Translations under genes and position numbers: made by a program
Notes under the pieces: generated by a model
Databases searched by the model: none
What the model saw: only the letters and a program-made list of their open reading frames with translations
What the model was told of the DNA's origin: nothing
Part shown: positions 1,285 to 21,924 of the stretch, one piece after another
How positions within the stretch are numbered: the first letter of the stretch is position 1
How the letters are laid out: every line of letters starts with the position of its first letter
IMG/VR virus record: IMGVR_UViG_2609459845_000023
Location: 1 to 21,924 of that record
Source: a virus
Taxonomy: Duplodnaviria; Heunggongvirae; Uroviricota; Caudoviricetes
Length of the DNA stretch: 21,924 nt
Strand: one strand, 5' to 3'

Positions 1285-1330
1285 AGGTTGCTCCGGGCTA
1301 TGAAATAGAAAAATGAATCCGTTGAAGCCT

Positions 1331-1345
1331 GCTTTTTTATACTAA
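1331..1345. other. attL: attL core (O) of lambda site-specific recombination; lambda P' arm follows to about 1418
   Basis: exact 15-bp lambda common core GCTTTTTTATACTAA; right flank GTTGGCATTATAAAAAAGCATTGCTTATCAATTTGTTGCAACGAACAGGTCACTATCAGTCAAAATAAAATCATTATTT matches the lambda attP P' arm; left flank ...GTTGAAGCCT is the bacterial B arm. Confidence 0.92.
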
Positions 1346-1418
1346 GTTGGCATTATAAAAAAGCATTGCTTATCAATTTGTTGCAACGAACAGGTCACTA
1401 TCAGTCAAAATAAAATCA

Positions 1419-2489
1419 TTATTTGATTTCAATTTTGTCCCACTCCCTGCCTCTGTCATCACGATACTGTGATGCCATGGTGTCCGACTTATGCCCGAGA
1501 AGATGTTGAGCAAATTTATCGCTTATCTGCTTCTCATAGAGTCTTGCAGACAAACTGCGCAACTCGTGAAAGGTTGGCGGATCCCCTTCGAAGGAGAGAC
1601 CTGATGCTTTTCGTGCGCGCATAAAATACCTTGATACTGTGCCGGATGAAAGCGGTTCACGACGAGTAGATGCAATTATGGTTTCTCCGCCAAGAATCTT
1701 TTTGCATTTATCAAGTGTTTCCTTCATTGATATCCCGAGAGCATCAACATGCAATGTTGTTGGGATGGCAATTTTTACGCCTGTTTTGCTTTGCTCGACA
1801 TAAAGATATCCATCTACGATATCAGACCACTTCATTTCGCATAAATCACCAACTCGCTGCCCGGTAACAACAGCCAGTTCCATTGCAAGTCTAAGCCAAC
1901 ATGGTGATGATTCTGCTGCTTGATAAATTTTCAGGTATTCGTCAGCCGTAAGTCTTGATCTCCTTACCTCTGATTTTGCAGCGCGAGTGGCTGCGACCGG
2001 GTTTGTTGTTATATGGCCTTCAGCCATAGCCTCTCGGAATGCATCGCTCAGTGTTGATCTGATTAACTTGGCTGATGCCGCCTTTCCCTCGTCTATGTAT
2101 CCATTGAGCATTGCCGCAATTTCTTTTGTGGTGATGTCTTCAAGTGGAGCATCAGGCAGACCCCTCCTTATTGCTTTAATTTTGCTCATGTAATTTATGA
2201 GTGTCTTCTGCTTGATTCCTCTGCTGGCCAGGATTTTTTCGTAGCGATCAAGCCATGAATGTAACGTAACGGAATTATCACTGTTGATTCTCGCTGTCAG
2301 AGGCTTGTGTTTGTGTCCTGAAAATAACTCAATGTTGGCCTGTATAGCTTCAGTGATTGCGATTCGCCTGTCTCGGCCTAATCCAAACTCTTTACCCGTC
2401 CTTGGGTCCCTGTAGCAGTAATATCCATTGTTTCTTATATAAAGGTTAGGGGGTAAATCCCGGCGCTCATGACTTCGCCTTCTTCCCAT
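1419..2489 (-). CDS. int: lambda integrase (tyrosine recombinase)
   Basis: 356-aa ORF; MGRRRSHERRDLPPNLYIRNNGYYCYRDPRTGKEFGLGRD... matches lambda Int essentially full length; 3' end 74 bp from att core as in lambda. Confidence 0.97.
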   Translation of the reverse strand: MGRRRSHERRDLPPNLYIRNNGYYCYRDPRTGKEFGLGRDRRIAITEAIQANIELFSGHKHKPLTARINSDNSVTLHSWLDRYEKILASRGIKQKTLINYMSKIKAIRRGLPDAPLEDITTKEIAAMLNGYIDEGKAASAKLIRSTLSDAFREAMAEGHITTNPVAATRAAKSEVRRSRLTADEYLKIYQAAESSPCWLRLAMELAVVTGQRVGDLCEMKWSDIVDGYLYVEQSKTGVKIAIPTTLHVDALGISMKETLDKCKKILGGETIIASTRREPLSSGTVSRYFMRARKASGLSFEGDPPTFHELRSLSARLYEKQISDKFAQHLLGHKSDTMASQYRDDRGREWDKIEIK

Positions 2490-3770: not shown

Positions 3771-3963
3771 TCTGCTTTTCCTGCATTAGGAGAAAGACAA
3801 TCATGGCGGCGCGGATACTTCCGGTATCTTTTTACTCGATATTACCCTTCAATGGCACATACAAGAAGAGAGCCATCAACAGGAGTGAGTGAGGAATCGA
3901 CAACCAGCAACGCTTAATTATCTATAGTGTCGTATTTGCTTCATAAAATATGGCGAATAACAC

Positions 3964-8905: not shown

Positions 8906-8927
8906 TGAAACCCGCCTGAGCGGGTTA
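8906..8927 (-). terminator. intrinsic terminator overlapping the stop of the ral-slot gene
   Basis: minus-strand hairpin AACCCGC-TCAG-GCGGGTT followed by TCATTTTC. Confidence 0.5.
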
Positions 8928-9653
8928 TGACCACTTTTTGTTTGGATTTCGTTGGTGAGCGTGGTTTACAGGATTATTTGATATACCCCATAACTCTGAC
9001 TCGCTTATCTCTACACGAGAGAAAGACCTGCTTTCTTTCAGTTCTTTTATAAACCTAGAACCTACGATGACATCTATTGTCCCAGAAAGTTCTTGTAAAA
9101 GATCTTTGTTTTTTCTGAGGAAGAAAACATCTTCTTTATATTTAATTTTTACATAGAATTTATTCTGTATTTTTAATATATCAAAGCATGGCAGATATCT
9201 ATATCCCTCATGCTTTCGCCACTGCTTAACAATTATAACATCTCTTTCATTTACTGCATTAATCAGCCCAAGACCAAGTATAGGTATGAATATTCTATTG
9301 TCTGCCGAAAGCGTACAATTATTACCACCAGGCAAATATGTATAAATCATGTCGGAATTTTTATTCGCATCAACGAATGCACGTAAGAATCGTACATATT
9401 TTTGCCATCCGTTTATACCAAATTTACCATATAAGTATTCTTTATTTGTTAGAAGAAAACTATTTGTATCAGGAGCCTTATCTACAGACCTGTCGATAAG
9501 ATCTCCAACTACGTTTACAAAGTCAAAGACAGAGTTTAATAAGAACAATTGTCTTTCAGTCGGGCGAATTTCAATTATGTAGCCTGGATGAAGACGATAT
9601 TGCATCTGCTTACGAAGTATGCTGAACGCTTGGGTCCGGGCATCTGAAAGCAA
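8925..9653 (-). CDS. hypothetical AT-rich protein occupying the lambda ral/sieB slot (242 aa from TTG at 9653; 226 aa from first ATG at 9605)
   Basis: track ORF; body 8930..9540 is strongly AT-rich by eye while the 5' ~100 nt is GC-normal; no family recognised; does not match lambda Ral. Confidence 0.65.
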   Translation of the reverse strand: MLSDARTQAFSILRKQMQYRLHPGYIIEIRPTERQLFLLNSVFDFVNVVGDLIDRSVDKAPDTNSFLLTNKEYLYGKFGINGWQKYVRFLRAFVDANKNSDMIYTYLPGGNNCTLSADNRIFIPILGLGLINAVNERDVIIVKQWRKHEGYRYLPCFDILKIQNKFYVKIKYKEDVFFLRKNKDLLQELSGTIDVIVGSRFIKELKESRSFSRVEISESELWGISNNPVNHAHQRNPNKKWS

Positions 9654-9803: not shown

Positions 9804-10127
9804 TCATGCCAATGGAATGGATTTCCCTTTAACCTTTTGTCTTCCTTGACAAGTTATACCGAACTCACTTGGCTTGCTATACCAAACTCGAAGATTCTTG
9901 CGCTCAATACGTTGCAGGTTGCTTTCAATCTGTTCGTGGTATTCAGCCAGCACCGTAAGGTCTATCGGATTCAGTGCGCTTTCTACTCGTGATTTCGGTT
10001 TGCGATTCAGCGAGAGAATAGGGCGGTTAACTGGTTTTGCGCTTACCCCAACCAACAGGGGATTTGCTGCTTTCCATTGAGCCTGTTTCTCTGCGCGACG
10101 TTCGCGGCGGCGTGTTTGTGCATCCAT
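9804..10127 (-). CDS. N: lambda N transcription antiterminator
   Basis: internal start of track ORF at MDAQTRRRERRAEKQAQWKAANPLLVGVSAKPVNRPILSLNRKPKSRVESALNPIDLTVLAEYH... (107 aa), recognised as lambda N. Confidence 0.95.
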   Translation of the reverse strand: MDAQTRRRERRAEKQAQWKAANPLLVGVSAKPVNRPILSLNRKPKSRVESALNPIDLTVLAEYHEQIESNLQRIERKNLRVWYSKPSEFGITCQGRQKVKGKSIPLA

Positions 10128-10285: not shown

Positions 10286-10317
10286 GCCCTTCTTCAGGGC
10301 TTAATTTTTAAGAGCAT
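10286..10317 (-). promoter_or_regulatory. nutL: nutL (boxB GCCCTGAAGAAGGGC; boxA-like TGCTCTTAA)
   Basis: minus-strand read GATGCTCTTAAAAATTAAGCCCTGAAGAAGGGCAGCA; boxB identical to lambda nutL, boxA differs at its first base from my recollection of lambda (CGCTCTTA). Confidence 0.85.
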
Positions 10318-10480: not shown

Positions 10481-11836
<1,356 letters not shown>

Positions 11837-11844
11837 GACATTCC

Positions 11845-11876
11845 CGCTCTTACACATCCCAGCCCTGAAAAAGGGC
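11845..11876 (+). promoter_or_regulatory. nutR: nutR (boxA CGCTCTTAC, boxB GCCCTGAAAAAGGGC)
   Basis: read directly: CGCTCTTACACATCCCAGCCCTGAAAAAGGGC, matching lambda nutR. Confidence 0.9.
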
Positions 11877-11894
11877 ATCAAATTAAACCACACC

Positions 11895-11930
11895 TATGGT
11901 GTATGCATTTATTTGCATACATTCAATCAA
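11895..11930 (+). terminator. tR1 region (hairpin GTATGCA-TTTATT-TGCATAC)
   Basis: sequence ATGGTGTATGCATTTATTTGCATACATTCAATCAATTG recognised as the lambda tR1 region between nutR and cII. Confidence 0.6.
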
Positions 11931-11955
11931 TTGTTATCTAAGGAAATACTTACAT

Positions 11956-12249
11956 ATGGTTCGTGCAAACAAACGCAACGAGGCTCTACGAATCGAGAGT
12001 GCGTTGCTTAACAAAATCGCAATGCTTGGAACTGAGAAGACAGCGGAAGCTGTGGGCGTTGATAAGTCGCAGATCAGCAGGTGGAAGAGGGACTGGATTC
12101 CAAAGTTCTCAATGCTGCTTGCTGTTCTTGAATGGGGGGTCGTTGACGACGACATGGCTCGATTGGCGCGACAAGTTGCTGCGATTCTCACCAATAAAAA
12201 ACGCCCGGCGGCAACCGAGCGTTCTGAACAAATCCAGATGGAGTTCTGA
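11956..12249 (+). CDS. cII: lambda CII transcriptional activator
   Basis: internal start of track ORF at MVRANKRNEALRIESALLNKIAMLGTEKTAEAVGVDKSQISRWKRDWIPKFSMLLAVLEWGVVDDDMARLARQVAAILTNKKRPAATERSEQIQMEF (97 aa). Confidence 0.95.
   Translation: MVRANKRNEALRIESALLNKIAMLGTEKTAEAVGVDKSQISRWKRDWIPKFSMLLAVLEWGVVDDDMARLARQVAAILTNKKRPAATERSEQIQMEF
11965..11978 (-). promoter_or_regulatory. CII-binding repeat TTGC-N6-TTGC of pRE
   Basis: minus-strand read TTGCGTTTGTTTGC inside the 5' end of cII, as in lambda pRE. Confidence 0.7.
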
Positions 12250-12271
12250 GGTCATTACTGGATCTATCAAC
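12195..12271 (-). ncRNA. oop: oop antisense RNA (77 nt) with its intrinsic terminator
   Basis: minus-strand read GTTGATAGATCCAGTAATGACCTCAGAACTCCATCTGGATTTGTTCAGAACGCTCGGTTGCCGCCGGGCGTTTTTTATT matches lambda oop; antisense to the cII 3' end. Confidence 0.8.
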
Positions 12272-12281
12272 AGGAGTCATT

Positions 12282-13181
12282 ATGACAAATACAGCAAAAA
12301 TACTCAACTTCGGCAGAGGTAACTTTGCCGGACAGGAGCGTAATGTGGCAGATCTCGATGATGGTTACGCCAGACTATCAAATATGCTGCTTGAGGCTTA
12401 TTCGGGCGCAGATCTGACCAAGCGACAGTTTAAAGTGCTGCTTGCCATTCTGCGTAAAACCTATGGGTGGAATAAACCAATGGACAGAATCACCGATTCT
12501 CAACTTAGCGAGATTACAAAGTTACCCGTCAAACGGTGCAATGAAGCCAAGTTAGAACTCGTCAGAATGAATATTATCAAGCAGCAAGGCGGCATGTTTG
12601 GACCAAATAAAAACATCTCAGAATGGTGCATCCCTCAAAACGAGGGAAAATCCCCTAAAACGAGGGATAAAACATCCCTCAAATTGGGGGATTGCTATCC
12701 CTCAAAACAGGGGGACACAAAAGACACTATTACAAAAGAAAAAAGAAAAGATTATTCGTCAGAGAATTCTGGCGAATCCTCTGACCAGCCAGAAAACGAC
12801 CTTTCTGTGGTGAAACCGGATGCTGCAATTCAGAGCGGCAGCAAGTGGGGGACAGCAGAAGACCTGACCGCCGCAGAGTGGATGTTTGACATGGTGAAGA
12901 CTATCGCACCATCAGCCAGAAAACCGAATTTTGCTGGGTGGGCTAACGATATCCGCCTGATGCGTGAACGTGACGGACGTAACCACCGTGACATGTGCGT
13001 GCTGTTCCGCTGGGCATGCCAGGACAACTTCTGGTCCGGTAACGTGCTGAGCCCGGCCAAACTCCGCGATAAGTGGACCCAACTCGAAATCAACCGTAAC
13101 AAGCAACAGGCAGGCATGACAGCCAGCAAACCAAAACTCGACCTGACAAACACAGACTGGATTTACGGGGTGGATCTATGA
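12282..13181 (+). CDS. O: lambda O replication initiator
   Basis: 299-aa ORF MTNTAKILNFGRGNFAGQERNVADLDDGYARLSNMLLEAYSGADLTKRQFKVLLAILRKTYGWNKPMDRITDSQLSEITKLPVKRCNEAKLELVRMNIIKQQGGMF... Confidence 0.97.
   Translation: MTNTAKILNFGRGNFAGQERNVADLDDGYARLSNMLLEAYSGADLTKRQFKVLLAILRKTYGWNKPMDRITDSQLSEITKLPVKRCNEAKLELVRMNIIKQQGGMFGPNKNISEWCIPQNEGKSPKTRDKTSLKLGDCYPSKQGDTKDTITKEKRKDYSSENSGESSDQPENDLSVVKPDAAIQSGSKWGTAEDLTAAEWMFDMVKTIAPSARKPNFAGWANDIRLMRERDGRNHRDMCVLFRWACQDNFWSGNVLSPAKLRDKWTQLEINRNKQQAGMTASKPKLDLTNTDWIYGVDL
12629..12760 (+). repeat. ori: ori-lambda: four iterons (ATCCCTCAAAACGAGGGA-like) plus adjacent AT-rich region
   Basis: TCCCTCAAAACGAGGGA / TCCCCTAAAACGAGGGA / TCCCTCAAATTGGGGGA / TCCCTCAAAACAGGGGGA followed by ACAAAAGACACTATTACAAAAGAAAAAAGAAAAGATTATT, inside O. 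Confidence 0.9.
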
Positions 13182-13879
13182 AAAACATCGCCGCACAGAT
13201 GGTTAACTTTGACCGTGAGCAGATGCGTCGGATCGCCAACAACATGCCGGAACAGTACGACGAAAAGCCGCAGGTACAGCAGGTAGCGCAGATCATCAAC
13301 GGTGTGTTCAGCCAGTTACTGGCAACTTTCCCGGCGAGCCTGGCTAACCGTGACCAGAACGAAGTGAACGAAATCCGTCGCCAGTGGGTTCTGGCTTTTC
13401 GGGAAAACGGGATCACCACGATGGAACAGGTTAACGCAGGAATGCGCGTAGCCCGTCGGCAGAATCGACCATTTCTGCCATCACCCGGGCAGTTTGTTGC
13501 ATGGTGCCGGGAAGAAGCATCCGTTACCGCCGGACTGCCAAACGTCAGCGAGCTGGTTGATATGGTTTACGAGTATTGCCGGAAGCGAGGCCTGTATCCG
13601 GATGCGGAGTCTTATCCGTGGAAATCAAACGCGCACTACTGGCTGGTTACCAACCTGTATCAGAACATGCGGGCCAATGCGCTTACTGATGCGGAATTAC
13701 GCCGTAAGGCCGCAGATGAGCTTGTCCATATGACTGCGAGAATTAACCGTGGTGAGGCGATCCCTGAACCAGTAAAACAACTTCCTGTCATGGGCGGTAG
13801 ACCTCTAAATCGTGCACAGGCTCTGGCGAAGATCGCAGAAATCAAAGCTAAGTTCGGACTGAAAGGAGCAAGTGTATGA
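13178..13879 (+). CDS. P: lambda P (DnaB helicase loader)
   Basis: 233-aa ORF MKNIAAQMVNFDREQMRRIANNMPEQYDEKPQVQQVAQIINGVFSQLLATFPASLANRDQNEVNEIRRQWVLAF... Confidence 0.97.
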   Translation: MKNIAAQMVNFDREQMRRIANNMPEQYDEKPQVQQVAQIINGVFSQLLATFPASLANRDQNEVNEIRRQWVLAFRENGITTMEQVNAGMRVARRQNRPFLPSPGQFVAWCREEASVTAGLPNVSELVDMVYEYCRKRGLYPDAESYPWKSNAHYWLVTNLYQNMRANALTDAELRRKAADELVHMTARINRGEAIPEPVKQLPVMGGRPLNRAQALAKIAEIKAKFGLKGASV

Positions 13880-14166
13880 CGGGCAAAGAGGCAATTATTC
13901 ATTACCTGGGGACGCATAATAGCTTCTGTGCGCCGGACGTTGCCGCGCTAACAGGCGCAACAGTAACCAGCATAAATCAGGCCGCGGCTAAAATGGCACG
14001 GGCAGGTCTTCTGGTTATCGAAGGTAAGGTCTGGCGAACGGTGTATTACCGATTTGCTACCAGGGAAGAACGGGAAGGAAAGATGAGCACGAACCTGATT
14101 TTTAAGGAGTGTCGCCAGAGTGCCGCGATGAAACGGGTATTGGCAGTATATGGAGTTAAAAGATGA
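13876..14166 (+). CDS. ren: lambda Ren
   Basis: 96-aa ORF MTGKEAIIHYLGTHNSFCAPDVAALTGATVTSINQAAAKMARAGLLVIEGKVWRTVYYRFATREEREGK... Confidence 0.9.
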   Translation: MTGKEAIIHYLGTHNSFCAPDVAALTGATVTSINQAAAKMARAGLLVIEGKVWRTVYYRFATREEREGKMSTNLIFKECRQSAAMKRVLAVYGVKR

Positions 14167-14190
14167 CCATCTACATCACTGAGCTAATAA

Positions 14191-14223
14191 CAGGCCTGCT
14201 GGTAATCGCAGGCCTTTTTATTT
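14191..14223 (+). terminator. tR2 intrinsic terminator between ren and ninB
   Basis: hairpin AGGCCTGC-TGGTAATC-GCAGGCCT followed by TTTTTATTT. Confidence 0.8.
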
Positions 14224-14239
14224 GGGGGAGAGGGAAGTC

Positions 14240-14680
14240 ATGAAAAAACTAACCTTTGAAATTCGATCTCCAGCACATCAGCAAAACGCTATTCACGCGG
14301 TACAGCAAATTCTTCCAGACCCAACCAAACCAATCGTAGTAACCATTCAGGAACGCAACCGCAGCTTAGACCAGAATCGAAAGCTTTGGGCTTGCCTTGG
14401 TGACGTCTCTCGTCAGGTTGAATGGCATGGTCGCTGGCTGGATGCAGAAAGCTGGAAGTGTGTGTTTACCGCAGCATTAAAGCAGCAGGATGTTGTTCCT
14501 AACCTTGCCGGGAATGGCTTTGTGGTAATAGGCCAGTCAACCAGCAGGATGCGTGTAAACGAATTTGCGGAGCTATTAGAGCTTATACAGGCATTCGGTA
14601 CAGAGCGTGGCGTTAAGTGGTCAGACGAAGCGCGACTGGCTCTCGAATGGAAAGCGCGATGGGGAGATCGGGCTGCATGA
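14240..14680 (+). CDS. ninB: NinB (Orf recombination mediator, nin146)
   Basis: 146 aa from MKKLTFEIRSPAHQQNAIHAVQQILPDPTKPIVVTIQERNRSLDQNRKLWACLGDVSRQVEWHGRWLDAESWKCVFTAALKQQD..., recognised as lambda NinB. Confidence 0.93.
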   Translation: MKKLTFEIRSPAHQQNAIHAVQQILPDPTKPIVVTIQERNRSLDQNRKLWACLGDVSRQVEWHGRWLDAESWKCVFTAALKQQDVVPNLAGNGFVVIGQSTSRMRVNEFAELLELIQAFGTERGVKWSDEARLALEWKARWGDRAA

Positions 14681-15205
14681 CTATCAAATCAAATACGCCA
14701 GCACACGACAAGGACTGCTGGCAAACGCCGCTTTGGCTTTTTGATGCACTGGATATTGAGTTTGGATTCTGGCTGGATTCGGCAGCGAGCGACAAAAAAT
14801 GCTCTGTGCGCTCACTGGTTAACTGAGGCCGACGACGCGCTAAATTCTGAGTGGATAAGCCACGGTGCAATCTGGAATAACCCACCGTACAGCAATATCA
14901 GGCCGTGGGTGGAAAAAGCCGCTGAGCAGTGCATACAACAGCGACAGACGGTAGTTATGCTTGTGCCAGAGGATATGTCAGTCGGATGGTTCAGCAAGGC
15001 TCTGGAGAGTGTCGACGAAGTTCGCATTATCACTGATGGACGGATTAATTTTATCGAACCATCGACAGGGCTGGAGAAGAAGGGAAACAGCAAAGGCTCC
15101 ATGCTGCTGATTTGGCGACCGTTCATCAGTCCTCGACGGATGTTTACTACCGTATCCAAAGCGGCATTGATGGCGATCGGGCAGGGCGTCAGGAGGGCGG
15201 CATGA
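14677..15205 (+). pseudogene. phage Dam-family DNA N6-adenine methyltransferase, frameshifted in an A6 run (14794..14799)
   Basis: two track ORFs in different frames (14617..14826 and 14741..15205) join into one protein, MTIKSNTPAHDKDCWQTPLWLFDALDIEFGFWLDSAASD / KNALCAHWLTEADDALNSEWISHGAIWNNPPYSNI..., if one A is removed; NPPY motif present; start overlaps the ninB stop (ATGA). Confidence 0.75.
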
Positions 15206-15354
15206 GGCGACAGCGACGAAGTTTCACCGACATCATCTGCGAAAACTGCAAATACCTTCCAACGAAACGCTCCAGAAATAAACGCAAGCCAATCCCAAAA
15301 GAATCTGACGTAAAAATCTTCAATTACACAGCTCACCTGTGGGATATCCGGTAG
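15202..15354 (+). CDS. ninE: NinE (50 aa here; lambda NinE is 60 aa)
   Basis: [50 protein letters not shown]; SD AGGAGGG upstream; start overlaps the Dam stop; C-terminus shorter than lambda nin60. Confidence 0.85.
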
Positions 15355-15380
15355 CTAAGATATCGTGCGAGGAAATGACA

Positions 15381-15722
15381 ATGGATTATTCACAGTTAAG
15401 TGATTTTGAAATTAACAGAATGGTAGGAGACATAATTTTTAAAGGCCTTTGGGCAAGTAAACCGGAAACATCAGGGAATAACACCAACAAATGGTATTAC
15501 GGAAATGCTTATACAACTTTTGAGCCATTAAATCATTTGCCTGACTACTGCAATGATCCGAGCGCTTCATGGCCGATTATTGAGAAATACAGGATTTCTA
15601 TCTTAGACCAGTTAACTGAATGGTGTGTGGATGCAAAAGGCGTAAGCCCAATATTTGATACCAGACCTCTCCGCGCCGCCATGATTGTCTTTCTCCTGAT
15701 GCAGGAGGCCAATAATGCTTAG
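15381..15722 (+). CDS. hypothetical protein (113 aa from [15 protein letters not shown]) immediately upstream of the holin
   Basis: track ORF 15339..15722; likely start at ATG 15381 with GAGG 8 nt upstream; not Q-like (only 2 Cys, no zinc-finger motif). Confidence 0.5.
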
Positions 15723-15975
15723 CCCATCTCAATCCCTTCAATACCTGAAAGAAAGCGTCGAGCGGGTATTAACGTGCGCTATGGACAAAATCAGAGAATG
15801 GTTCAGTTACAGCTTCGGAGGACTGACTGCGATGGGTGGCATTCTCTCCCTGAATGACTGGGCTGTCATCATTGGTATTCTTTGTACTGTCGGCACATTT
15901 GGCATCAACTGGTACTACAAGCGCAAAGAGCGCGAGGACAGATTGAATGGCAATGTCACCGGCACTACGAAATAG
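15715..15975 (+). CDS. putative holin (86 aa)
   Basis: track ORF; hydrophobic core [34 protein letters not shown] followed by charged tail [12 protein letters not shown]; positioned directly upstream of the endolysin. Confidence 0.6.
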
Positions 15976-16450
15976 CGTAATAGCGGCGATAAGTGGCGGG
16001 GCTATTGCTATAGCATCTGTGTTAATCACTGGACCGAGTGGTAACGATGGTCTGGAAGGTGTCAGCTACATACCATACAAAGATATTGTTGGTGTATGGA
16101 CTGTATGCCACGGACACACCGGAAAAGACATCATGCTCGGTAAAACGTATACCGAAGCAGAATGCAAAGCCCTCCTGAATAAAGACCTTGCCACGGTCGC
16201 CAGACAAATTAACCCGTACATCAAAGTCGATATACCGGAAACAACGCGCGGCGCTCTTTACTCGTTCGTCTATAACGTGGGCACAGGCAATTTCAGAACA
16301 TCGACGCTTCTTCGCAAAATAAACCAGGGCGATATCAAGGGCGCATGTGATCAGCTACGGCGCTGGACATACGCTGGCGGTAAGCAATGGAAAGGGCTGA
16401 TGACCCGTCGTGAGATTGAGCGTGAAGTCTGTTTGTGGGGGCAACAATGA
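15947..16450 (+). CDS. SAR-endolysin (T4-lysozyme-like muramidase with N-terminal signal-anchor-release segment)
   Basis: track ORF; N-terminal weakly hydrophobic Gly/Ala-rich segment [20 protein letters not shown] then [19 protein letters not shown]...; resembles RrrD-type prophage lysozymes of E. coli. Confidence 0.88.
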
Positions 16451-16538
16451 GCATGATTTGCTTTTTCATGGCAGCGTTGCTCGCATTGAATGGCAACGAT
16501 GCGTGGCCGTGGTTTCTGGCCGTTGGGGTGTTGATGTC

Positions 16539-16997
16539 ATGAGTCGGTTAACCGCGATTATCTCCGCTCTGGTTATCTGCATCATCGTCTGCCTGTCGTG
16601 GGCGGTCAATCATTACCGTGATAACGCAATCGCCTACAAAGAGCAGCGCGATAACAAGGCCAGTGAACTGGAGAAGGCGAACGCCACCATCGCTGACATG
16701 CGGAAGCGTCAACGTGATGTAGCAGAACTCGATGCCAGATATACAAAGGAGCTTGCTGATGCTAACGCGACTATCGAAAGTCTCCGTGCTGATGTTTCTG
16801 CTGGTCGTAAGCGCCTGCAAGTCGCCGCCACCTGTGCAAAGTCAACGACCGGAGCCAGCAGCATGGGCGATGGAGAAAGCCCAAGACTTACAGCAGATGC
16901 TGAACTCAATTATTACCGTCTCCGAAGTGGAATCGACAAGATAACCGCGCAGGTTAACTACCTGCAGGAATACATCAGGACGCAATGCCTGAAATAA
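16539..16997 (+). CDS. Rz-like i-spanin (153 aa)
   Basis: internal start of track ORF 16410..16997 at [26 protein letters not shown] (N-terminal TM) followed by coiled-coil-like sequence; SD GGGGTG upstream. Confidence 0.8.
16759..16944 (+). CDS. Rz1-like o-spanin lipoprotein embedded in the +1 frame of Rz (61 aa)
   Basis: [20 protein letters not shown] lipoprotein signal (lipobox VSAC), then Pro-rich [12 protein letters not shown]; SD AAGGA 8 nt upstream; entirely within Rz. Confidence 0.7.
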
Positions 16998-17028
16998 TTT
17001 TTTTGCAAATCACAAAGTCAATTTAATG

Positions 17029-17083
17029 AGCCTCGCGATGCGGGGCTTTTTGCAATAAATGCGTACCGCAACGCATGTTTTTT
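17029..17083 (+). terminator. tandem intrinsic terminators ending the rightward operon
   Basis: hairpin AGCCTCGC-GAT-GCGGGGCT + TTTTT (about 17029..17051), then ATGCGT-ACCGCA-ACGCAT + GTTTTTT (17059..17083). Confidence 0.6.
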
Positions 17084-17198
17084 ACACCGAACCTGCCCCT
17101 TTGGAATGGGCCTTTGAGGATACCAGTTAGTGCTGGCGAGCCTCGGTGGGCTGGTTTCCTATGCGGCAAAGGTTCATTTCAAATGGTAGGTAAACGTT

Positions 17199-17720
17199 AT
17201 GAATATCGTGCCACTTAATTACAAAGGTGAAATTGTCAGTTTCAACACTGATGGTTGGATCAACGTCACAGGTGTTGCTGAGAGATTTGGAAAACGCATT
17301 GATAACTGGATGCGTTTGGCAGAAACGCTTGAATACGTTCGTGCTTTAGACGAAGCGTTGACCGGGAAAGAATCTCAAATTTTACATCCCTCACAATCGA
17401 GGTATGTAAAAACCAGCAAGGCACGAAAGGACAGGGGTGGTGGTACGTGGCTACATCCAAAACTTTCAGTTGCATTTGCCCGTTGGTGTGATGCTCGTTT
17501 TGCTGTGTGGTGCGACCTGCACATTGATAGTCTGCTTCGCGGTGAACTGACTGAGCAGCAGAAATATGAGCAAGCATGTCGCATTCGCGATGACCGGAAA
17601 TCAAAAGCCAGCAATGGGGCAAGAGAGATGGCTCGCTGGCGATGGGATAAGCCGGTTATTGAAGCAAATGTTGAGTACTGGCGCGAGCAACTGCAGTTGA
17701 CTCTCGATATCGCGTGCTGA
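17199..17720 (+). CDS. KilA-N domain protein (173 aa)
   Basis: track ORF; N-terminal pattern DGWINVTGVAERFGKRIDNWMRLAETLEYVRALDEAL fits the KilA-N / APSES-type DNA-binding signature; SD GGTAGG upstream. Confidence 0.65.
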   Translation: MNIVPLNYKGEIVSFNTDGWINVTGVAERFGKRIDNWMRLAETLEYVRALDEALTGKESQILHPSQSRYVKTSKARKDRGGGTWLHPKLSVAFARWCDARFAVWCDLHIDSLLRGELTEQQKYEQACRIRDDRKSKASNGAREMARWRWDKPVIEANVEYWREQLQLTLDIAC

Positions 17721-18177
17721 TGGCAAACGCAAAACTGCGTTATCGGAAAAATCAAAGCATTACGAGAACTGAGCAACGGCTATCCATTACAAAGCCCATC
17801 TACGGGTGGGCTTGATAATGAAACCGGAATTTATTCTTGGCAACCAGTTACGGCAGTACCACAAAACAACCCAAGCCAGTAAGTGGGGAAATAACACTGG
17901 CAGCCACTGAAAGATGAACCTCCTGCCTTATGGCAAAAAAGATTCTTTGTTGTGGCGGACTGATGGAAAGACATCGGTTATTGCAGAGGCCATTCAATGA
18001 GTGGTCTCGACAATGGCTTATACCCTGCACGGGATAACTTAACTGATATCCCTTTTAACGGATAAACGGAGCCAACAATGGCAGAGCTCACAGACAAACA
18101 AGAGCTGTTTGCCCATCCGGATGATGTGTATGTCGGAGAGTGTGTGATTTATACCGGCTACCGGGCAAGTTCCGGAT

Positions 18178-18513
18178 ATGTCATCCTTTACCTATACAAC
18201 AACCGGGTCTGGTGTGGTTATTCGCCTTCCTGGCAATATGATCATCCAGATGGATGTAGGTACAACGGACAGTAACGGATTTTATAATGTGAATATGGGT
18301 GTGGCGATGAGCTCATACCAGGTATTTGCAGTAGAAGGCCATGTCTCTGGATGGACAGCCTCCGGCGGTATCTATCAACTCTTAACCGTGTATGGTGCCG
18401 AAAAGGTTAACGCAGGGAGCTTTAATGTTCGTTCTGCAACCTGGAGTTCGTCCGACCACAACTTTACTGCGCAGCCAACAGTTTTTAACTGGATTGCTAT
18501 CGGGAGAGCGTAA
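18178..18513 (+). CDS. probable 3' remnant of a side tail-fibre gene (C-terminal domain, 111 aa)
   Basis: track ORF; stop overlaps the tfa start (TAATG) as in stf-tfa pairs; the frame is open from about 18148; overlapping ORF 18078..18275 in another frame suggests a 5' truncation or frameshift. Confidence 0.45.
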   Translation: MSSFTYTTTGSGVVIRLPGNMIIQMDVGTTDSNGFYNVNMGVAMSSYQVFAVEGHVSGWTASGGIYQLLTVYGAEKVNAGSFNVRSATWSSSDHNFTAQPTVFNWIAIGRA

Positions 18514-18977
18514 TGTCTGATTCAGATTTTTTATATAGTGCCAAAAGCAACGCTTTTGTTTTCAAGGAAAGCTCTCTGTTAAAGACGGACGAATACAGTG
18601 ATGCTGTGCCGGTTGATATGGGTGTTTTCGCCGAATTTTACCCAACAGTTAAAGACGGCATGCGAAGGGTTGCAGGGCCAGACGGCATGCCTGCGTGGGA
18701 AAAAATTCCCGAGCCAACTAAAGAAGAACTGTTCGCGCTTAAACTGGCACAGGCCGAGTCAAAGAGAGATGCGTTAATCTCTGCGGCTAACGCATATATA
18801 AGCAGCGAACACTGGCCTTCTAAGCTCATTCTGGAGATCATCACCGATGAAGAGAAGGCGACCTTTAAAGAGTGGCTTGCTCATATCGATGCCTTGAAGA
18901 AAATGAAGTTTAATGATGAAGCAGCGATATTAAGTGACAGCCTTGAATGGCCGCCACGTCCTGCTACCGCGTCGTAA
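18513..18977 (+). CDS. tfa: tail-fibre assembly protein (Tfa family)
   Basis: 154-aa ORF; C-terminal region (...EELFALKLAQAESKRDALISAANAYISSEHW...EEKATFKEWLAHIDAL...LEWPPRP) resembles the conserved Tfa C-terminal domain ending in an EWP..P motif. Confidence 0.75.
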   Translation: MSDSDFLYSAKSNAFVFKESSLLKTDEYSDAVPVDMGVFAEFYPTVKDGMRRVAGPDGMPAWEKIPEPTKEELFALKLAQAESKRDALISAANAYISSEHWPSKLILEIITDEEKATFKEWLAHIDALKKMKFNDEAAILSDSLEWPPRPATAS

Positions 18978-20025
18978 TCTCCTGGCGTTTCAGCGCCGAA
19001 CGGGCCAGACGGATAAACGGTTTTTCAATTATCCGGTTAGCTGCGAATGCCATCATCAGAGAAGCAACAAGCATGCAGGGGACAAGGACGCCCCAGTGCT
19101 TATACTCCCCAATCGGAATAAATTTCTGTACCATCTGCATTACCAGCCAATGACAGAGATAAATGCTATATGTCAGGTCGCCAAGAATTGATAATGCTTT
19201 TATCTCTCCCGCCTTTGATTTATCCAGCATCAAAACGCCCACAAAAAATATTGCAGCAAAAAAGAACATTCCTTCTATACCGCTGGTATGGTCTGAGAAT
19301 GTGAAGAAAAAATAGAAAAATAAAGCCGATGCGAATATTGCTATAGTAATAGCAGTTAAGTTAGGAAGAATTAATTTAAACCTTTCAAATATCATTCCAG
19401 ACATAATCCCAAACGCAAACTCATAAAACATCGTTGAGCCTGCCAGCCTGATTAGACCATAAAACGGCGAGTCAGCAGGAGGGATAGCGGTGACTGTGCT
19501 GTTAAACGACAACCCTCCATTAAACGCAACCTGTAGCACTGCCGGGATTGCAATCAGCAGCGCGATACACAATGAACCTCGATACCGGGTCGTTATTGCA
19601 GCGCACATACAGAAAATAGCGTAGAACGATATTTCATAAGTCAATGTCCACGCGGGCGGTAGCAGATTAAATCCAAACGCCGGAGCGGGTAGTGTGTAAT
19701 CGTTGTGCAGAACCAGAAAACCCCTGGATAATTGTGTGGCAGGCGCAGGTTGCAATAACAACGAAACCAGTAACACAACAAAAAATAGCGGGTATATTCT
19801 GGCGAATCGTTTAACAATAAATACCGTTGGTCTGCATTCCTCAGGATTTATTGTTGACCAATAAATAATAAATCCAGAGATAATGAAAAAAATATCAACG
19901 CCCACCATGCCATTTGCAAATAAATTAGCAAACCAGCGCGGAGTAAAAAAAGAAAAATGGTACAGCACCACAAGTAGCGCTGCTATTCCACGAAGATACT
20001 GGACGGAAAATATTTTATTGTTCAT
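18964..20025 (-). CDS. acyltransferase-3 family integral membrane protein (O-acetyltransferase-like)
   Basis: track ORF 18964..20037 (TTG); likely ATG start at 20025 (MNNKIFSVQYLRGIAALLVVLYHF...); multiple hydrophobic helices; AT-rich; converges on tfa with a 14-nt overlap. Confidence 0.8.
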   Translation of the reverse strand: MNNKIFSVQYLRGIAALLVVLYHFSFFTPRWFANLFANGMVGVDIFFIISGFIIYWSTINPEECRPTVFIVKRFARIYPLFFVVLLVSLLLQPAPATQLSRGFLVLHNDYTLPAPAFGFNLLPPAWTLTYEISFYAIFCMCAAITTRYRGSLCIALLIAIPAVLQVAFNGGLSFNSTVTAIPPADSPFYGLIRLAGSTMFYEFAFGIMSGMIFERFKLILPNLTAITIAIFASALFFYFFFTFSDHTSGIEGMFFFAAIFFVGVLMLDKSKAGEIKALSILGDLTYSIYLCHWLVMQMVQKFIPIGEYKHWGVLVPCMLVASLMMAFAANRIIEKPFIRLARSALKRQEITTR

Positions 20026-20059
20026 TATGTGGCCCAATTTTCATTGAGCCACAATTATA

Positions 20060-21346
20060 TCAGAAAACCCCCTCAACCCACAACTGGCCATCAAAGCACA
20101 CCATTCTAAACAGACGTGATGCGGCGTTCCCGCCAGCCGCCACTACCAAATCAGCATCAAATATCGCCATGCCATTAGCCGGGTGGTACAGGTCGCCGAC
20201 AGCCTGTTTAAGCGTCAGATCACCAGCTCCCGGCGTTGCGCTTCGGACCATCAGATAAAACGAACTCCCGTCCGGGTAAACAGTTGGCAGCGCATTGATT
20301 GTCACGTTACCGGATAACCCCTCGGTGAAATAACAATGTCCAGTTTCAGGCCACCAGATTAAATCAGTAGCGTTGATATTGCTCGTTCCCGCTACATCAA
20401 TGAGCTTGTGGATTTTCCCTGGCTGTAAATCCCCGGAGTTTGCACAGAACAGCGCCGACAGTTGCTGCAATGCGGTTTCACTATCGCGCCAGTTCAGCAC
20501 ATTTGTAATAGTCCCGCGCTTAATTCTGCCGTCAAACAAAACGGGGCGCTCTGGCGTGAACGTCACGAAGTCTTTCGTGTCTACAAAATAAGTCCATTTT
20601 TTTGTGTCGAAAAAATCCGCATAGATTCTGATCGTGCCGTCCGGCAAATAAACCAGCGCCGGGCCTTCCGCCGCCTGAGTAAACGGAATTACTGATAATT
20701 TCGTGAACTGTCCTGAGAAACAATTTGAACAATACACCTCAATTTTTTTGGTGATTTCATCTTTTATTGTCAGGTAATACGTCTGGAATATTCTGGAAAA
20801 AACAGAATCAATCATGTTTTTTGGTTCGATATTTACCGCAACCGGATCGTAAAACTCCAGTCTCTCAACATCAGAACAGACAGAATAGAATGTTTTAAAA
20901 CTTTTGACATTTACACCTTTACTGTCAGTCTGATCGTTGTAATAACGCAGGCTGACTATCAGGAACAGATTTTCGTCATCAACAAACCATTCAGGAGCCC
21001 ACACGTCAGTGGTCACCAGATCTGAACCCGGTAATCGTTTCCCACAGACTGGCGTATCGCCAAGCTTAATTCGTACCAGTTCCCACACGGTTAAATCACG
21101 TGAGCGCCAGCAATCGACGTCATAAACGTTTTCTGTATATCCTGATACGGCTATTAACCACCAACCGTTGTGATAAATAATTGATGGGTCTCTCCCTAAA
21201 ACTTCTCCAGTTCCACCAATAGCCCAAAGGAATTGAGCCTTTATTTTTTCGAATCGTTCTCCATCATAAGATAATGCCAGGTTTACTTTTGAGCTTTGGT
21301 CACTTTCAAAAAAAGAACCAACAAACAGCGCGGAATTATTTTTCAC
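20060..21346 (-). CDS. hypothetical protein (428 aa), upstream partner of the acyltransferase
   Basis: track ORF; only possible start is GTG at 21346 (in-frame TAA two codons upstream) with weak SD; no signal peptide; family not recognised. Confidence 0.65.
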   Translation of the reverse strand: MKNNSALFVGSFFESDQSSKVNLALSYDGERFEKIKAQFLWAIGGTGEVLGRDPSIIYHNGWWLIAVSGYTENVYDVDCWRSRDLTVWELVRIKLGDTPVCGKRLPGSDLVTTDVWAPEWFVDDENLFLIVSLRYYNDQTDSKGVNVKSFKTFYSVCSDVERLEFYDPVAVNIEPKNMIDSVFSRIFQTYYLTIKDEITKKIEVYCSNCFSGQFTKLSVIPFTQAAEGPALVYLPDGTIRIYADFFDTKKWTYFVDTKDFVTFTPERPVLFDGRIKRGTITNVLNWRDSETALQQLSALFCANSGDLQPGKIHKLIDVAGTSNINATDLIWWPETGHCYFTEGLSGNVTINALPTVYPDGSSFYLMVRSATPGAGDLTLKQAVGDLYHPANGMAIFDADLVVAAGGNAASRLFRMVCFDGQLWVEGVF

Positions 21347-21436
21347 GATGATTTACCGATTGGATATTTATATTTAAAGACAATTTAAATTTATAATAAA
21401 TGTCCCAAAATTGCTCACTATTTGGTTATGGGAAAT

Positions 21437-21480
21437 AACGATCAAAATCTTCAAATCGATCGGTTGCAACGATCAAAATC
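21437..21480. repeat. 13-bp direct repeat AACGATCAAAATC x2 (31-bp spacing) with three GATC sites
   Basis: read directly at 21437..21449 and 21468..21480; GATC at about 21440, 21458 and 21471; lies in the divergent intergenic region. Confidence 0.6.
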
Positions 21481-21490
21481 CATGCATTGG

Positions 21491-21510
21491 TACTGTATGT
21501 ACATACAGTG
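21491..21510 (+). promoter_or_regulatory. LexA operator (SOS box) upstream of the umuD-like gene
   Basis: TACTGTATGTACATACAGTG contains a perfect 16-bp palindrome CTGTATGTACATACAG fitting CTGT-N8-ACAG; 16 bp upstream of the start codon. Confidence 0.8.
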
Positions 21511-21525
21511 CCAATGAGGTGAGTT

Positions 21526-21924
21526 ATGGTTGCCATGTCACAGTTTCCCAGCCCTGCTGCTGATTACCACGAGGATGCGATCTCACTCGACAAGGAGTTG
21601 ATACGAAAACCAGCGGCGACATTCTTCATCCGTTACGCTGCTACATCATGGCGGGAAGGAATCAAGAGAGGTGCTCTGCTGGTCATGGACACATCGCTGA
21701 CTCCGGTAGACGGAAGCCTGGTGATTTGTCATCTGAATGACCAGATACGGCTGTTGCGTCTCAGGCTGCTGCCAAAGGTGCACCTGGAAGAACTGGACCA
21801 CGCTGATAAAAAGACATGGATAACTGACGACGATTGTGAGGAACGAGTCGTAGTGAAGGGGGTGGTGACGTACATCATCAATGACGCGCGGACTGGTGAG
21901 TTTGATGACTACCCGCTGAAGTGA
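21526..21924 (+). CDS. UmuD'-like protein (LexA/UmuD S24 family), 132 aa
   Basis: track ORF; FPSPAADY motif and overall alignment to the E. coli UmuD C-terminal domain; SD GAGGTGAG upstream; begins near the position of the UmuD Cys24-Gly25 cleavage site. Confidence 0.7.
   Translation: MVAMSQFPSPAADYHEDAISLDKELIRKPAATFFIRYAATSWREGIKRGALLVMDTSLTPVDGSLVICHLNDQIRLLRLRLLPKVHLEELDHADKKTWITDDDCEERVVVKGVVTYIINDARTGEFDDYPLK

Follow-up and report, generated by a model that had tools for sequence, protein, structure and literature searches.

Alignment with near-identical sibling prophages shows that an illegitimate deletion, running from ninF codon 22 to holin codon 4 and a few SNPs old at most, has joined the lysis genes of a defective prophage to its early right operon. 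The window (the whole stretch of DNA analysed, 21,924 nucleotides) holds a lambdoid prophage that is defective; its immunity is of the imm434 type, its int, N, O and P are of the lambda type, and its left end lies beside ybhC at the E. coli attachment site of lambda. We consider it likely, with good confidence, that the recent loss of 2,511 bp in this defective prophage left the lysis genes under pR and N as a neutral or mildly disarming step of decay. The Q-less layout is best read as one such step, neither a designed architecture nor an evolved system, and the window by itself is routine prophage decay.

Composition of the lysis region

The cassette is ordered, in window ORFs, as a shortened ninE (ninE'), a 113-aa ORF, a holin ORF, a SAR endolysin and Rz/Rz1. 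Its components and neighbours are the following:

14240-14680, + strand: ninB (PF05772, E 1.3e-54)
14677-15205, + strand: dam-like N6-adenine methyltransferase pseudogene, frameshifted and split across two frames (one extra base relative to J6)
15202-15354, + strand: ninE with a premature stop, 50 aa (W51 TGG>TAG at 15353; aligned to J6 ninE, 60 aa)
15381-15722, + strand: ninX, 113 aa (DUF2591/PF10765)
15703-15708, + strand: ninF Shine-Dalgarno AGGAGG, now serving the chimera (6 nt 5' of the ATG at 15715; read from the sequence)
15715-15975, + strand: in-frame NinF-holin chimera ORF (NinF 1-22, 15715-15780; holin from Met4, 15781-15975)
15780-15781, + strand: deletion joint (2-bp TA microhomology; 2,511 bp absent relative to sibling prophages)
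15947-16450, + strand: SAR endolysin of R21/RrrD type (GH24; PF00959; E-X8-D-X5-T triad)
16539-16997, + strand: Rz i-spanin, 152 aa (PF03245, E 7e-41; phrog_13 matched over 1-154 of 154)
16759-16944, + strand: Rz1 o-spanin lipoprotein, inside Rz in another frame (PF06085, E 2e-20; lipobox VVSAC)
17029-17052, + strand: terminator-like hairpin and U tract (hairpin 17029-17047; RNA fold -14.6 kcal/mol, z -3.0)
17199-17720, + strand: KilA-N gene, directly 3' of Rz (PF04383)
18078-18159, + strand: second deletion or recombination joint (aligned to L020 and L006)
18160-18513, + strand: tail-fibre remnant (residues 127-243 of a 243-aa fibre protein; phrog_1396)
18513-18977, + strand: tfa, tail-fibre assembly gene (PF02413)

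Several of these identities revise a first-pass annotation of the same DNA. The 113-aa ORF, which had been left as unknown, is NinX: the profile match, at 64.3 bits, exceeds the cut-off of 22.6 (PF10765; E 1.5e-17), and the DNA is 98-99% identical to annotated ninX genes located after ninE. The length of the short ninE (50 aa versus 60) had been read correctly, but its cause is a nonsense mutation and no joint; a deletion joint at this position was considered and rejected, homology to full-length ninE running on to ~15374. In the sibling loci the neighbouring dam-like gene is annotated as a pair of Dam fragments. Some starts and stops do overlap as had been described, but 26 nt separate ninE' from ninX and 88 nt the endolysin from Rz. 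The second gap was also examined as a possible lesion and discarded, an identical gap being found in the intact prophages L035, L039 and L041. The hairpin at 17029-17047 is the first terminator-like structure 3' of the lysis cassette, but the statement that terminators appear only after Rz1 was mistaken: a strong intrinsic terminator homologous to lambda tR2 precedes the cassette within its operon, at 14192-14215. The KilA-N gene and the fibre remnant were rightly ordered as the next phage genes, but KilA-N itself has not been displaced; it occupies its normal site after Rz, a placement that matches 10 other prophages. The joint at 18078-18159 runs from the first 10 nt of a DUF2560 gene through ~65 nt of filler into the interior of a tail-fibre gene, and the remnant beyond it is 100% identical to residues 127-243 of the L006 fibre protein (tblastn).

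The earlier claim that the lysis cassette is joined to the pR early-right operon in a window lacking Q, pR' and head and tail genes stands, with tblastn and promoter scanning in agreement. Five Q types gave no tblastn match anywhere in the window. Lambda-type or P22-type terminase, portal and capsid and a baseplate protein, searched by tblastn with proteins from related loci as queries, were equally without a match in the window, where the sole virion-protein match is to fibre residues 127-243; no virions can be produced from this prophage. The promoter scan (11600-17000) returned no promoter-like site on the + strand between pR (11565-11593) and Rz, and the pR'/tR'-like leader of the siblings lies entirely inside the deleted 2,511 bp. 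Among other genomic contexts with the same KilA-N or holin, 20/20 have a Q gene 0.45-0.7 kb upstream of the holin, and the Q-less arrangement is no chance pattern.

The deletion and its sibling prophages

Four Q-bearing siblings, all E. coli prophages (L004, accession CP170296.1; L007; L010; L013), have flanks 99.97% identical to the window and carry an extra 2,511 bp exactly at 15780/15781. On both sides of this point L004, L007 and L010 differ from the window by 1-2 mismatches in ~9.3 kb, and the comparison with L013 covers the right side only. The deleted segment holds the 3' part of ninF, an 89-aa ORF, ybcO, rusA, ninH and Q (207 aa in the siblings, PF03589), together with pR'/tR', tRNA-Asn, tRNA-Thr, the holin Shine-Dalgarno and the first (antiholin) start of the holin, which in the siblings is a 67-aa protein with the dual start MYRM. 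In the siblings NinE is already cut to 50 aa, the Dam gene already broken and KilA-N already joined to the fibre remnant, and virion genes are absent while Q is kept; the virion genes were therefore lost before Q was deleted. L005, a carrier of the deletion, shows no SNP against L004 or L010, and the carriers as a group show 0-2 SNPs in ~12 kb. Since L005 is free of SNPs relative to siblings that were already defective, the loss of Q is a very recent deletion. The setting is one of decay, with segments still being lost: other deletions occur among the siblings (in L011 a further one has taken out Rz to KilA-N), and both ninE and the dam-like gene were pseudogenes already.

The 24-nt joint AACGTGCGCTATGGACAAAATCAG is present in L003 (a Logan contig, 5 samples) and in L005, L008 and L012, which are three NCBI contigs from two assemblies. 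Deletion carriers include GCA_000687025.1 and GCA_000704585.1, and GCA_000704885.1 is a Q-bearing isolate. It gave 0 matches in GTDB species representatives, IMG/VR and JGI metagenomes, which contain few E. coli strains, and no record spans it among 5,426 complete E. coli genomes (megablast, 15340-16000). The joint is rare, in collections holding few E. coli strains. Repeats abound in prophage regions, and L008 and L012 are near-identical copies, two within the one assembly GCA_000704585.1, so that a collapsed or mis-joined contig, or an annotation error, might be thought to account for the missing Q region. The recurrence of the same joint in three NCBI contigs (two assemblies) and in a Logan contig built from 5 sequencing runs, and its clean structure on a 2-bp microhomology with an open reading frame preserved, leave such an artefact with a negligible probability.

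A 204-aa left-arm protein was tried for tracing sibling contigs to ybhC and set aside as too common, the matches being unrelated prophages inserted at the lambda attachment site. In another lambda-attachment-site prophage, P is fused directly to the J C-terminus and lom.

The in-frame joint and the exact retention of the Met4 isoform could hint at selection, the chance rate of an in-frame joint being 1/3. An adaptive rewiring would make the locus a domesticated SOS-triggered, N-gated suicide or release module in which the chimeric holin replaces the antiholin/holin pair. With the whole Met4 holin isoform kept in frame, a strong Shine-Dalgarno and translational coupling to ninX, intact immunity, N and replication genes, and the deletion found in several assemblies, such a module has its attractions. 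We nevertheless regard it as extremely unlikely: the carriers amount to essentially a single clone, no copy of the joint turned up in the complete genomes and collections searched, the siblings with Q could already express the cassette and already had no virion genes, the same lineage carries other random deletions, and one chance joint in three would be in frame.

Predicted expression and activity of the lysis genes

With Q and pR' deleted, transcription of the cassette is considered from pR and the early control elements:

9807-10127, - strand: N antiterminator, lambda type, 107 aa (PF11438 N36 arginine-rich motif, E 1.9e-26; ORF intact)
10286-10300, - strand: nutL boxB (exact GCCCTGAAGAAGGGC match; 0 expected by chance)
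10885-11514, - strand: cI repressor, 434-type, 210 aa (PF01381 HTH and PF00717 S24 self-cleavage domain)
11565-11593, + strand: pR promoter TTGACA-17-GAAAAT in the 434-type operator region (top promoter-scan site, 10/12 matches)
11621-11836, + strand: cro, 434 type, 71 aa (PF01381)
11846-11876, + strand: nutR (boxA CGCTCTTA, 11846-11853; boxB, 11862-11876, an exact match with 0 expected by chance)
11956-14166, + strand: cII, O, P and ren (O 12282-13181; P 13178-13879; ren 13876-14166)
14192-14222, + strand: tR2-like intrinsic terminator in the ren/ninB interval (hairpin 14192-14215; fold -16.1 kcal/mol, z -3.8)

The region from cII to ren is 97% identical to the annotated J6 prophage. All parts for N-mediated readthrough (N, nutL and nutR boxB, nutR boxA, pR, cI434 and tR2) are present and intact, and the tR2-like hairpin is the predicted terminator for N to override between pR and the distal genes. 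The ninF'-holin, SAR endolysin and Rz/Rz1 genes would now be distal genes of the pR delayed-early operon, and cI434 would keep them silent in the lysogen. Upon RecA-stimulated cleavage of cI, N expressed from pL would act on RNA polymerase at nutR, and the polymerase so modified would pass tR1, tR2 and the untranslated stretches resulting from the dam and ninE lesions to reach the lysis genes. With readthrough achieved by N at nutR, lysis-gene expression would therefore need N and dispense with Q, and the cassette would no longer answer to the Q of an infecting phage acting in trans. As far as the DNA can tell, expression of the cassette that needs N but not Q would be mechanistically coherent after SOS induction. 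Cro turns pR down, and ~4 kb downstream of it the N-antiterminated transcription may not reach the level that lysis requires.

The ORF first called a holin is one in part; it is really an in-frame NinF(1-22)::holin(4-67) chimera of 86 aa. Its domain matches divide at residue 22/24, with phrog_672 covering residues 1-22 and PF16080 residues 24-72; the NinF 1-22 part is 100% identical (tblastn), and the position of the joint was set by alignment to phage Oslo ninF and holin. The holin half is a class II holin starting at the second start, Met4 (PF16080, E 8.5e-21), with two TMDs, of which TMD1 is weak (~1.1) and TMD2 strong (~2.3) in hydropathy windows, and a charged C-terminus. Its score against PF04971, the phage 21 S family, is 18.5 bits, below the cut-off of 26, and by profile match the two belong to different families of a related superfamily. 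Intact relatives begin MYRMDK; the window lacks Met1-Tyr-Arg and the Shine-Dalgarno and has NinF 1-22 instead, an extension of net charge zero (2 K/R, 2 D/E) that includes K12 and R17. The 64-aa holin form was rejected as a proxy for deletion carriers, as gene callers often choose Met4 in the intact gene; its look-up found Q in all 10 contexts returned.

The chimera start overlaps the ninX stop and, with the AGGAGG Shine-Dalgarno, would be well placed for translation. Any small, PMF-collapsing holes formed by the chimera would be putative pinholin behaviour, carried over from phage 21. In pinholins, positive N-terminal residues anchor the N-terminus and delay the flipping of TMD1, and such an N-terminal extension is the sole difference between antiholin and holin (PMC9636201; bioRxiv 10.1101/2021.04.20.440580). 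By analogy with this phage-21 work, the chimeric holin is probably impaired, its function blocked or delayed: 22 extra cytoplasmic residues, K12 and R17 among them, would make it harder for the weakly hydrophobic TMD1 to leave the membrane, a step that pinholins require, and the protein would act like an antiholin or a slow holin. The extension, with its net charge of zero, might also be tolerated, and internal initiation at Met4 could yield some native 64-aa holin.

The remaining lysis proteins are complete. With RrrD and R21 the endolysin shares at least 93% identity, and it aligns over its full length, including the N-terminal SAR segment, from its residue 3 to residues 1-165 of RrrD (4zpu, E 8.5e-107) and also to 3hde (6e-106); PF00959 is matched with E 8.8e-46, and the E-X8-D-X5-T triad can be read in the translation. 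The N-terminal segment is predicted to be a weakly hydrophobic signal-anchor-release segment that would allow release from the membrane. Rz, which has an N-terminal TMD, and Rz1 are both full length, Rz1 lying out of frame within Rz. SAR endolysins need no holin to lyse cells, lysis then being later and more gradual (PMC9239132), and by analogy with them it is plausible that the prophage can kill and lyse its host on induction. Since the chimera probably works poorly as a holin, any lysis would depend chiefly on the SAR endolysin freeing itself spontaneously, with the spanins contributing, and would be gradual and without sharp timing.

A stronger form of decay is possible, and we give it real though lesser weight: the deletion may have disarmed the cassette, so that induction brings no lysis, and may perhaps have been favoured for ridding a useless prophage of a lethal function. 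Q, pR' and the native translation signals of the holin are gone, positively charged extensions turn pinholins into antiholins (PMC9636201; bioRxiv 10.1101/2021.04.20.440580), further genes of the operon are already pseudogenes, and sibling L011, without Rz to KilA-N, shows the lineage to be shedding lysis genes. Yet the SAR endolysin and spanins are intact, endolysins of this kind manage without a holin (PMC9239132), and pR with N is a strong expression route of which every part is present; moreover, selection cannot be inferred here because carriers and non-carriers are separated by no SNPs. At the other extreme, a working SOS-triggered, N-gated, Q-independent suicide-lysis module, with the chimera as a functional new holin isoform kept by selection, is very unlikely. 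Were it real, it would offer, for example, altruistic lysis, release of contents or an abortive response, with no hijack by the Q of an infecting phage.

The modest value of the locus is that databases already hold a graded, near-isogenic series: Q-bearing and virion-less prophages, one that is Q-less by deletion alone (L005, in the sense of no SNP against the Q-bearing flanks compared), one also without Rz-KilA-N, and a relative with an intact tail module. Such a series could test, in natural strains, how much Q-less lysis N-antiterminated pR transcription drives, and also the effect of a long N-terminal extension on a class II holin. For genome scans there is a caution: 'no Q' here is a single recent lesion, not a distinct prophage design.

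Comparison with known systems

The closest relatives are the Q-bearing siblings (CP170296.1/L004, L007, L010 and L013), which have the same short ninE, broken dam, ninX, holin, endolysin, Rz/Rz1 and KilA-N, the same fibre-remnant joint, the same cargo (tfa, an acyltransferase, a GH43-like gene and a UmuD-like gene) and no virion genes. Unlike the window, they keep the 2,511 bp, with full ninF, Q, pR'/tR', the tRNAs and the 67-aa dual-start holin.

The DLP12 module of E. coli K-12 (essD, ybcS/rrrD, rzpD/rzoD) likewise combines a class II holin, a SAR-type lysozyme and Rz/Rz1 in a virion-less lambdoid prophage. Immunity and early genes are gone from DLP12. Its module is under Q-type control, whereas the prophage in the window is without Q and pR' and has its immunity, N and replication genes intact; the holins also differ, PF16080 here versus the P21 S family in DLP12. 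The DLP12 lysis module and its retention have been described, with the operon under a Q-type antiterminator (PMC7918800). Phage 21, with pinholin S21 68/71 and SAR endolysin R21, differs in holin family (PF04971 being below cut-off here), and relative to it the window has its first holin start deleted and a 22-residue NinF leader in place. A limited literature search found no natural N-terminal fusion of this kind on a pinholin.

The Salmonella P22-like phages ST104, PS119, Emek and Oslo (gp13/gp19) match the window at 98-100% in the holin DNA, starting at the joint, and share its gene order, ninE-ninX-ninF and then holin-endolysin-Rz; in these phages ~2.3 kb lies between ninF and holin, comprising ninG, ninY, ninH, ninZ, Q and two tRNAs. 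Lysis genes under a repressor-controlled early promoter, not Q/pR', are familiar from engineered cI857-pR-SRRz autolysis cassettes and Q-independent lambda derivatives. Compared with the cI857-pR-SRRz constructs, the arrangement in the window is natural, its holin is chimeric and its lysis genes lie ~4 kb past pR; because they lie behind tR1 and tR2, N would be required here.

The lysis region and its chimeric holin gene

The lysis region reads, in order, truncated ninE, a 113-aa ORF, holin, endolysin, Rz/Rz1, KilA-N, a fibre remnant and tfa, an arrangement proposed in the first-pass annotation and borne out by ORF reading and domain matches. Its claim that Q and the head and tail genes are absent also held: tblastn with five different Q proteins from related loci found no Q in the window, and virion queries from related loci gave no terminase, portal, capsid (lambda-type, P22-type) or baseplate match. 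The sole tblastn matches were NinF residues 1–22 (15715-15780) and residues 127–243 of a 243-aa fibre protein (18160-18510). A Q gene lies 0.45–0.7 kb upstream of the holin gene in 20/20 other contexts with the identical KilA-N protein or the same holin, and its absence here is thus exceptional. KilA-N, found directly 3' of Rz in the other contexts and ahead of the packaging genes in the ten KilA-N contexts, is therefore in its normal place.

The 113-aa ORF, initially taken as unknown, is NinX (PF10765, 64 bits); annotated ninX genes from numerous E. coli prophages, and from phages of both E. coli and Salmonella, match it at 98–99% nucleotide identity. The short ninE (50 aa) was correctly read but is not cut by the deletion joint: alignment to full-length ninE places a TGG>TAG nonsense change at 15353, with homology extending beyond the stop to about 15374. 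Likewise, the overlapping starts and stops are real where the holin start meets the ninX stop, as inherited from ninF, but are not general, as 26 nt separate truncated ninE from ninX and 88 nt separate the endolysin gene from Rz, a gap also found in intact prophages.

The gene called as holin has class II holin homology, but is a chimera (15715-15975). Homology to ninX regions extends beyond the ninX stop over the first 66 nt of ninF, ending at 15781, and homology to the class II holins of Salmonella phages Emek, ST104, PS119 and Oslo begins at 15780. Of the Oslo N-terminus, MYRMDKIREW, the window retains Met4 onward (ATG 15781-15783), fused in frame behind NinF residues 1–22. Microhomology across the joint is limited to the dinucleotide TA, and the chimera has inherited the AGGAGG Shine-Dalgarno of ninF (15703-15708).

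Sibling prophages and the origin of the joint

Contigs with near-identical defective E. coli prophages were found by look-up of a GH43-like cargo protein of the right arm and compared by megablast and base by base. Three Q-bearing siblings (L004, the complete chromosome CP170296.1; L007; and L010) differ from the window by 1–2 mismatches in about 9.3 kb flanking 15780/81 on both sides; for another, L013, the comparison covers only the right side. The Q-bearing siblings carry an additional 2,511 bp exactly at the joint. In L004, this segment comprises the remainder of ninF, an 89-aa ORF, ybcO, rusA, ninH, a 207-aa Q (PF03589), a leader with a promoter-like TTGACT...GGGTAAATT and a terminator hairpin, tRNA-Asn, tRNA-Thr, and the holin Shine-Dalgarno and first start.

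The joint itself is carried by L003 (a Logan contig, 5 runs), L005, L008 and L012, and was not found in 5,426 complete E. coli genomes, GTDB representatives, IMG/VR or JGI metagenomes. The deletion is the sole difference between L005 and the Q-bearing siblings; across 11.9 kb, L008 and the window show 100% identity, and L012 shares two extra SNPs (15317 C>T, 17863 G>A) with both. The 50-aa NinE, the broken dam gene (split into two called fragments in every sibling) and the KilA-N-to-fibre joint are already present in the Q-bearing siblings, and loss of the virion genes thus preceded loss of Q. The first-pass wiring stands as proposed, but the arrangement is the product of a single, very recent deletion in an already defective prophage. 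An independent deletion in L011 (GCA_021299245.1) keeps Q and removes the equivalent of window 16555-18058 (Rz/Rz1, KilA-N), from just after the endolysin gene to just before the second joint. Taken together, the sibling comparisons describe one clone's prophage losing segments by illegitimate deletion.

One assembly, GCA_000704585.1, contains two Q-less copies (L008 and L012), one SNP apart in 11.9 kb. They part ~116 bp beyond the UmuD-like gene, where one copy runs on to dacD while the other leads to a P4-type integrase; the pair may reflect either true duplication or ambiguous assembly.

Prophage anatomy, right arm and flanks

At its left end the window carries ybhC at 100% identity to E. 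coli, adjoined by lambda-type int and xis, which places the prophage at the lambda attachment site. Rightwards follow exo, bet, gam, kil, cIII, N, cI and cro, then cII, O, P, ren, ninB, a dam-like gene and ninE, and after these the lysis region. The control elements and cargo are:

N: 107 aa, lambda-type, intact (PF11438)
cI: 434-type, 210 aa, HTH and S24 domains
cro: 434-type
10286-10300: nutL boxB
11565-11593: pR
11846-11876: nutR boxA and boxB
14192-14215: tR2-like terminator (-16.1 kcal/mol, z -3.8)
14677-15205: dam-like N6-adenine methyltransferase gene, frameshifted, with one base more than in the annotated prophage J6
17029-17047: hairpin after the cassette (-14.6 kcal/mol, z -3.0)
18964-21924: right-arm cargo, comprising an acyltransferase-3 gene (357 aa, minus strand), the GH43-like protein (428 aa, minus strand) and a UmuD-like S24 peptidase gene (plus strand) running off the window

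Two orphan ORFs on the minus strand gave no match in Pfam or PADLOC: 8925-9653 (242 aa, in a region of ~36% GC between the DUF2528/cIII side and N) and 10481-10957 (158 aa, in the rex position directly downstream of cI and overlapping its 3' end). Their positions, in classic lambdoid accessory-gene slots, make both candidate prophage exclusion/defence genes. Also in the left arm, 50 nt (3779-3828) with 90% identity to part of ninX (L004 18152-18201), on the strand opposite to ninX, form a short dispersed repeat.

The second joint (18078-18159) is composite: the first 10 nt of the DUF2560 gene, which follows KilA-N in P22-like prophages, then ~65 nt of unrelated filler, partly matching a 'Gp49 / HNH' region of E. 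coli E308, then fibre codon 127. In two related loci, L006 and L009, the tfa and cargo region seen here adjoins an intact tail module, with identity to the window from 18153. A few E. coli assemblies carry the cargo region (18964-21924), for which megablast against 5,426 complete RefSeq E. coli genomes gave no match among the top-ranking hits.

On the right flank of L004, L005 and L008, the UmuD-like gene is followed by PBP5-family (dacD-like), GyrI-like, FUSC-family and DUF496 genes, then CP4-44-like genes, which we read as the dacD-sbmC-yeeA-yeeX neighbourhood rather than the ybhB-bioA flank of the attachment site. Set against the ybhC left flank (window 1-1420), this suggests recombination between two prophages, perhaps by inversion of a large segment, in which case a reciprocal hybrid elsewhere in the genome may carry the head and tail genes. 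Prophage decay is frequent at the ybhC site: L031 (CP055652.1) and L024-L030, E. coli prophages at this site, have large deletions and rearrangements, and one joins gene P directly to the J C-terminus and lom.

Predicted expression, lysis proteins and known systems

With cI434 bound, pR would be off and the cassette silent. Upon SOS-induced cI cleavage, N made from pL would act at nutR. Transcription from pR would then read past tR1 and tR2, cross the stretches that the dam and ninE lesions leave untranslated, and proceed via ninX into the ninF-holin chimera, the endolysin gene and Rz/Rz1, with termination near the 17029-17047 hairpin. Expression is thus predicted to need N, not Q. As pR' and the Q-utilisation site are gone, an infecting phage's Q would not switch the cassette on in trans; the cassette of the Q-bearing siblings, unlike that of the window, could respond to such a Q.

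By its match to 4zpu (E 8.5e-107), which spans the full length including the SAR segment, the endolysin is a SAR lysozyme of R21/RrrD type; it has an E-X8-D-X5-T triad. Rz and Rz1 are both full length. The holin part belongs to PF16080, with a match to the phage 21 S family under the cut-off; its TMD1 is weakly and its TMD2 strongly hydrophobic. In the phage 21 pinholin, TMD1 must exit the membrane and is retained by positive N-terminal residues, and a positive N-terminal extension alone sets the antiholin apart from the holin (PMC9636201; bioRxiv 10.1101/2021.04.20.440580). By analogy, the chimera's hydrophilic leader of 22 residues, among them K12 and R17, would be expected to delay its action or block it. 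SAR endolysins can lyse cells with no holin, at a later and less abrupt pace (PMC9239132), and lysis, given enough transcription, would most likely be gradual. The function of the chimera is doubtful and lysis competence putative.

Engineered cI-pR-SRRz autolysis cassettes follow a similar logic to this element. Among described systems, the nearest is the lysis module of DLP12 in E. coli K-12, an operon of class II holin, RrrD and Rz/Rz1 kept in a virion-less lambdoid prophage under Q-type antiterminator control (PMC7918800). Unlike that module, the window element retains immunity, N and replication genes and is without Q and pR'. It adds one more case to the well-known class of decaying lambdoid prophages and is not a new type of system.
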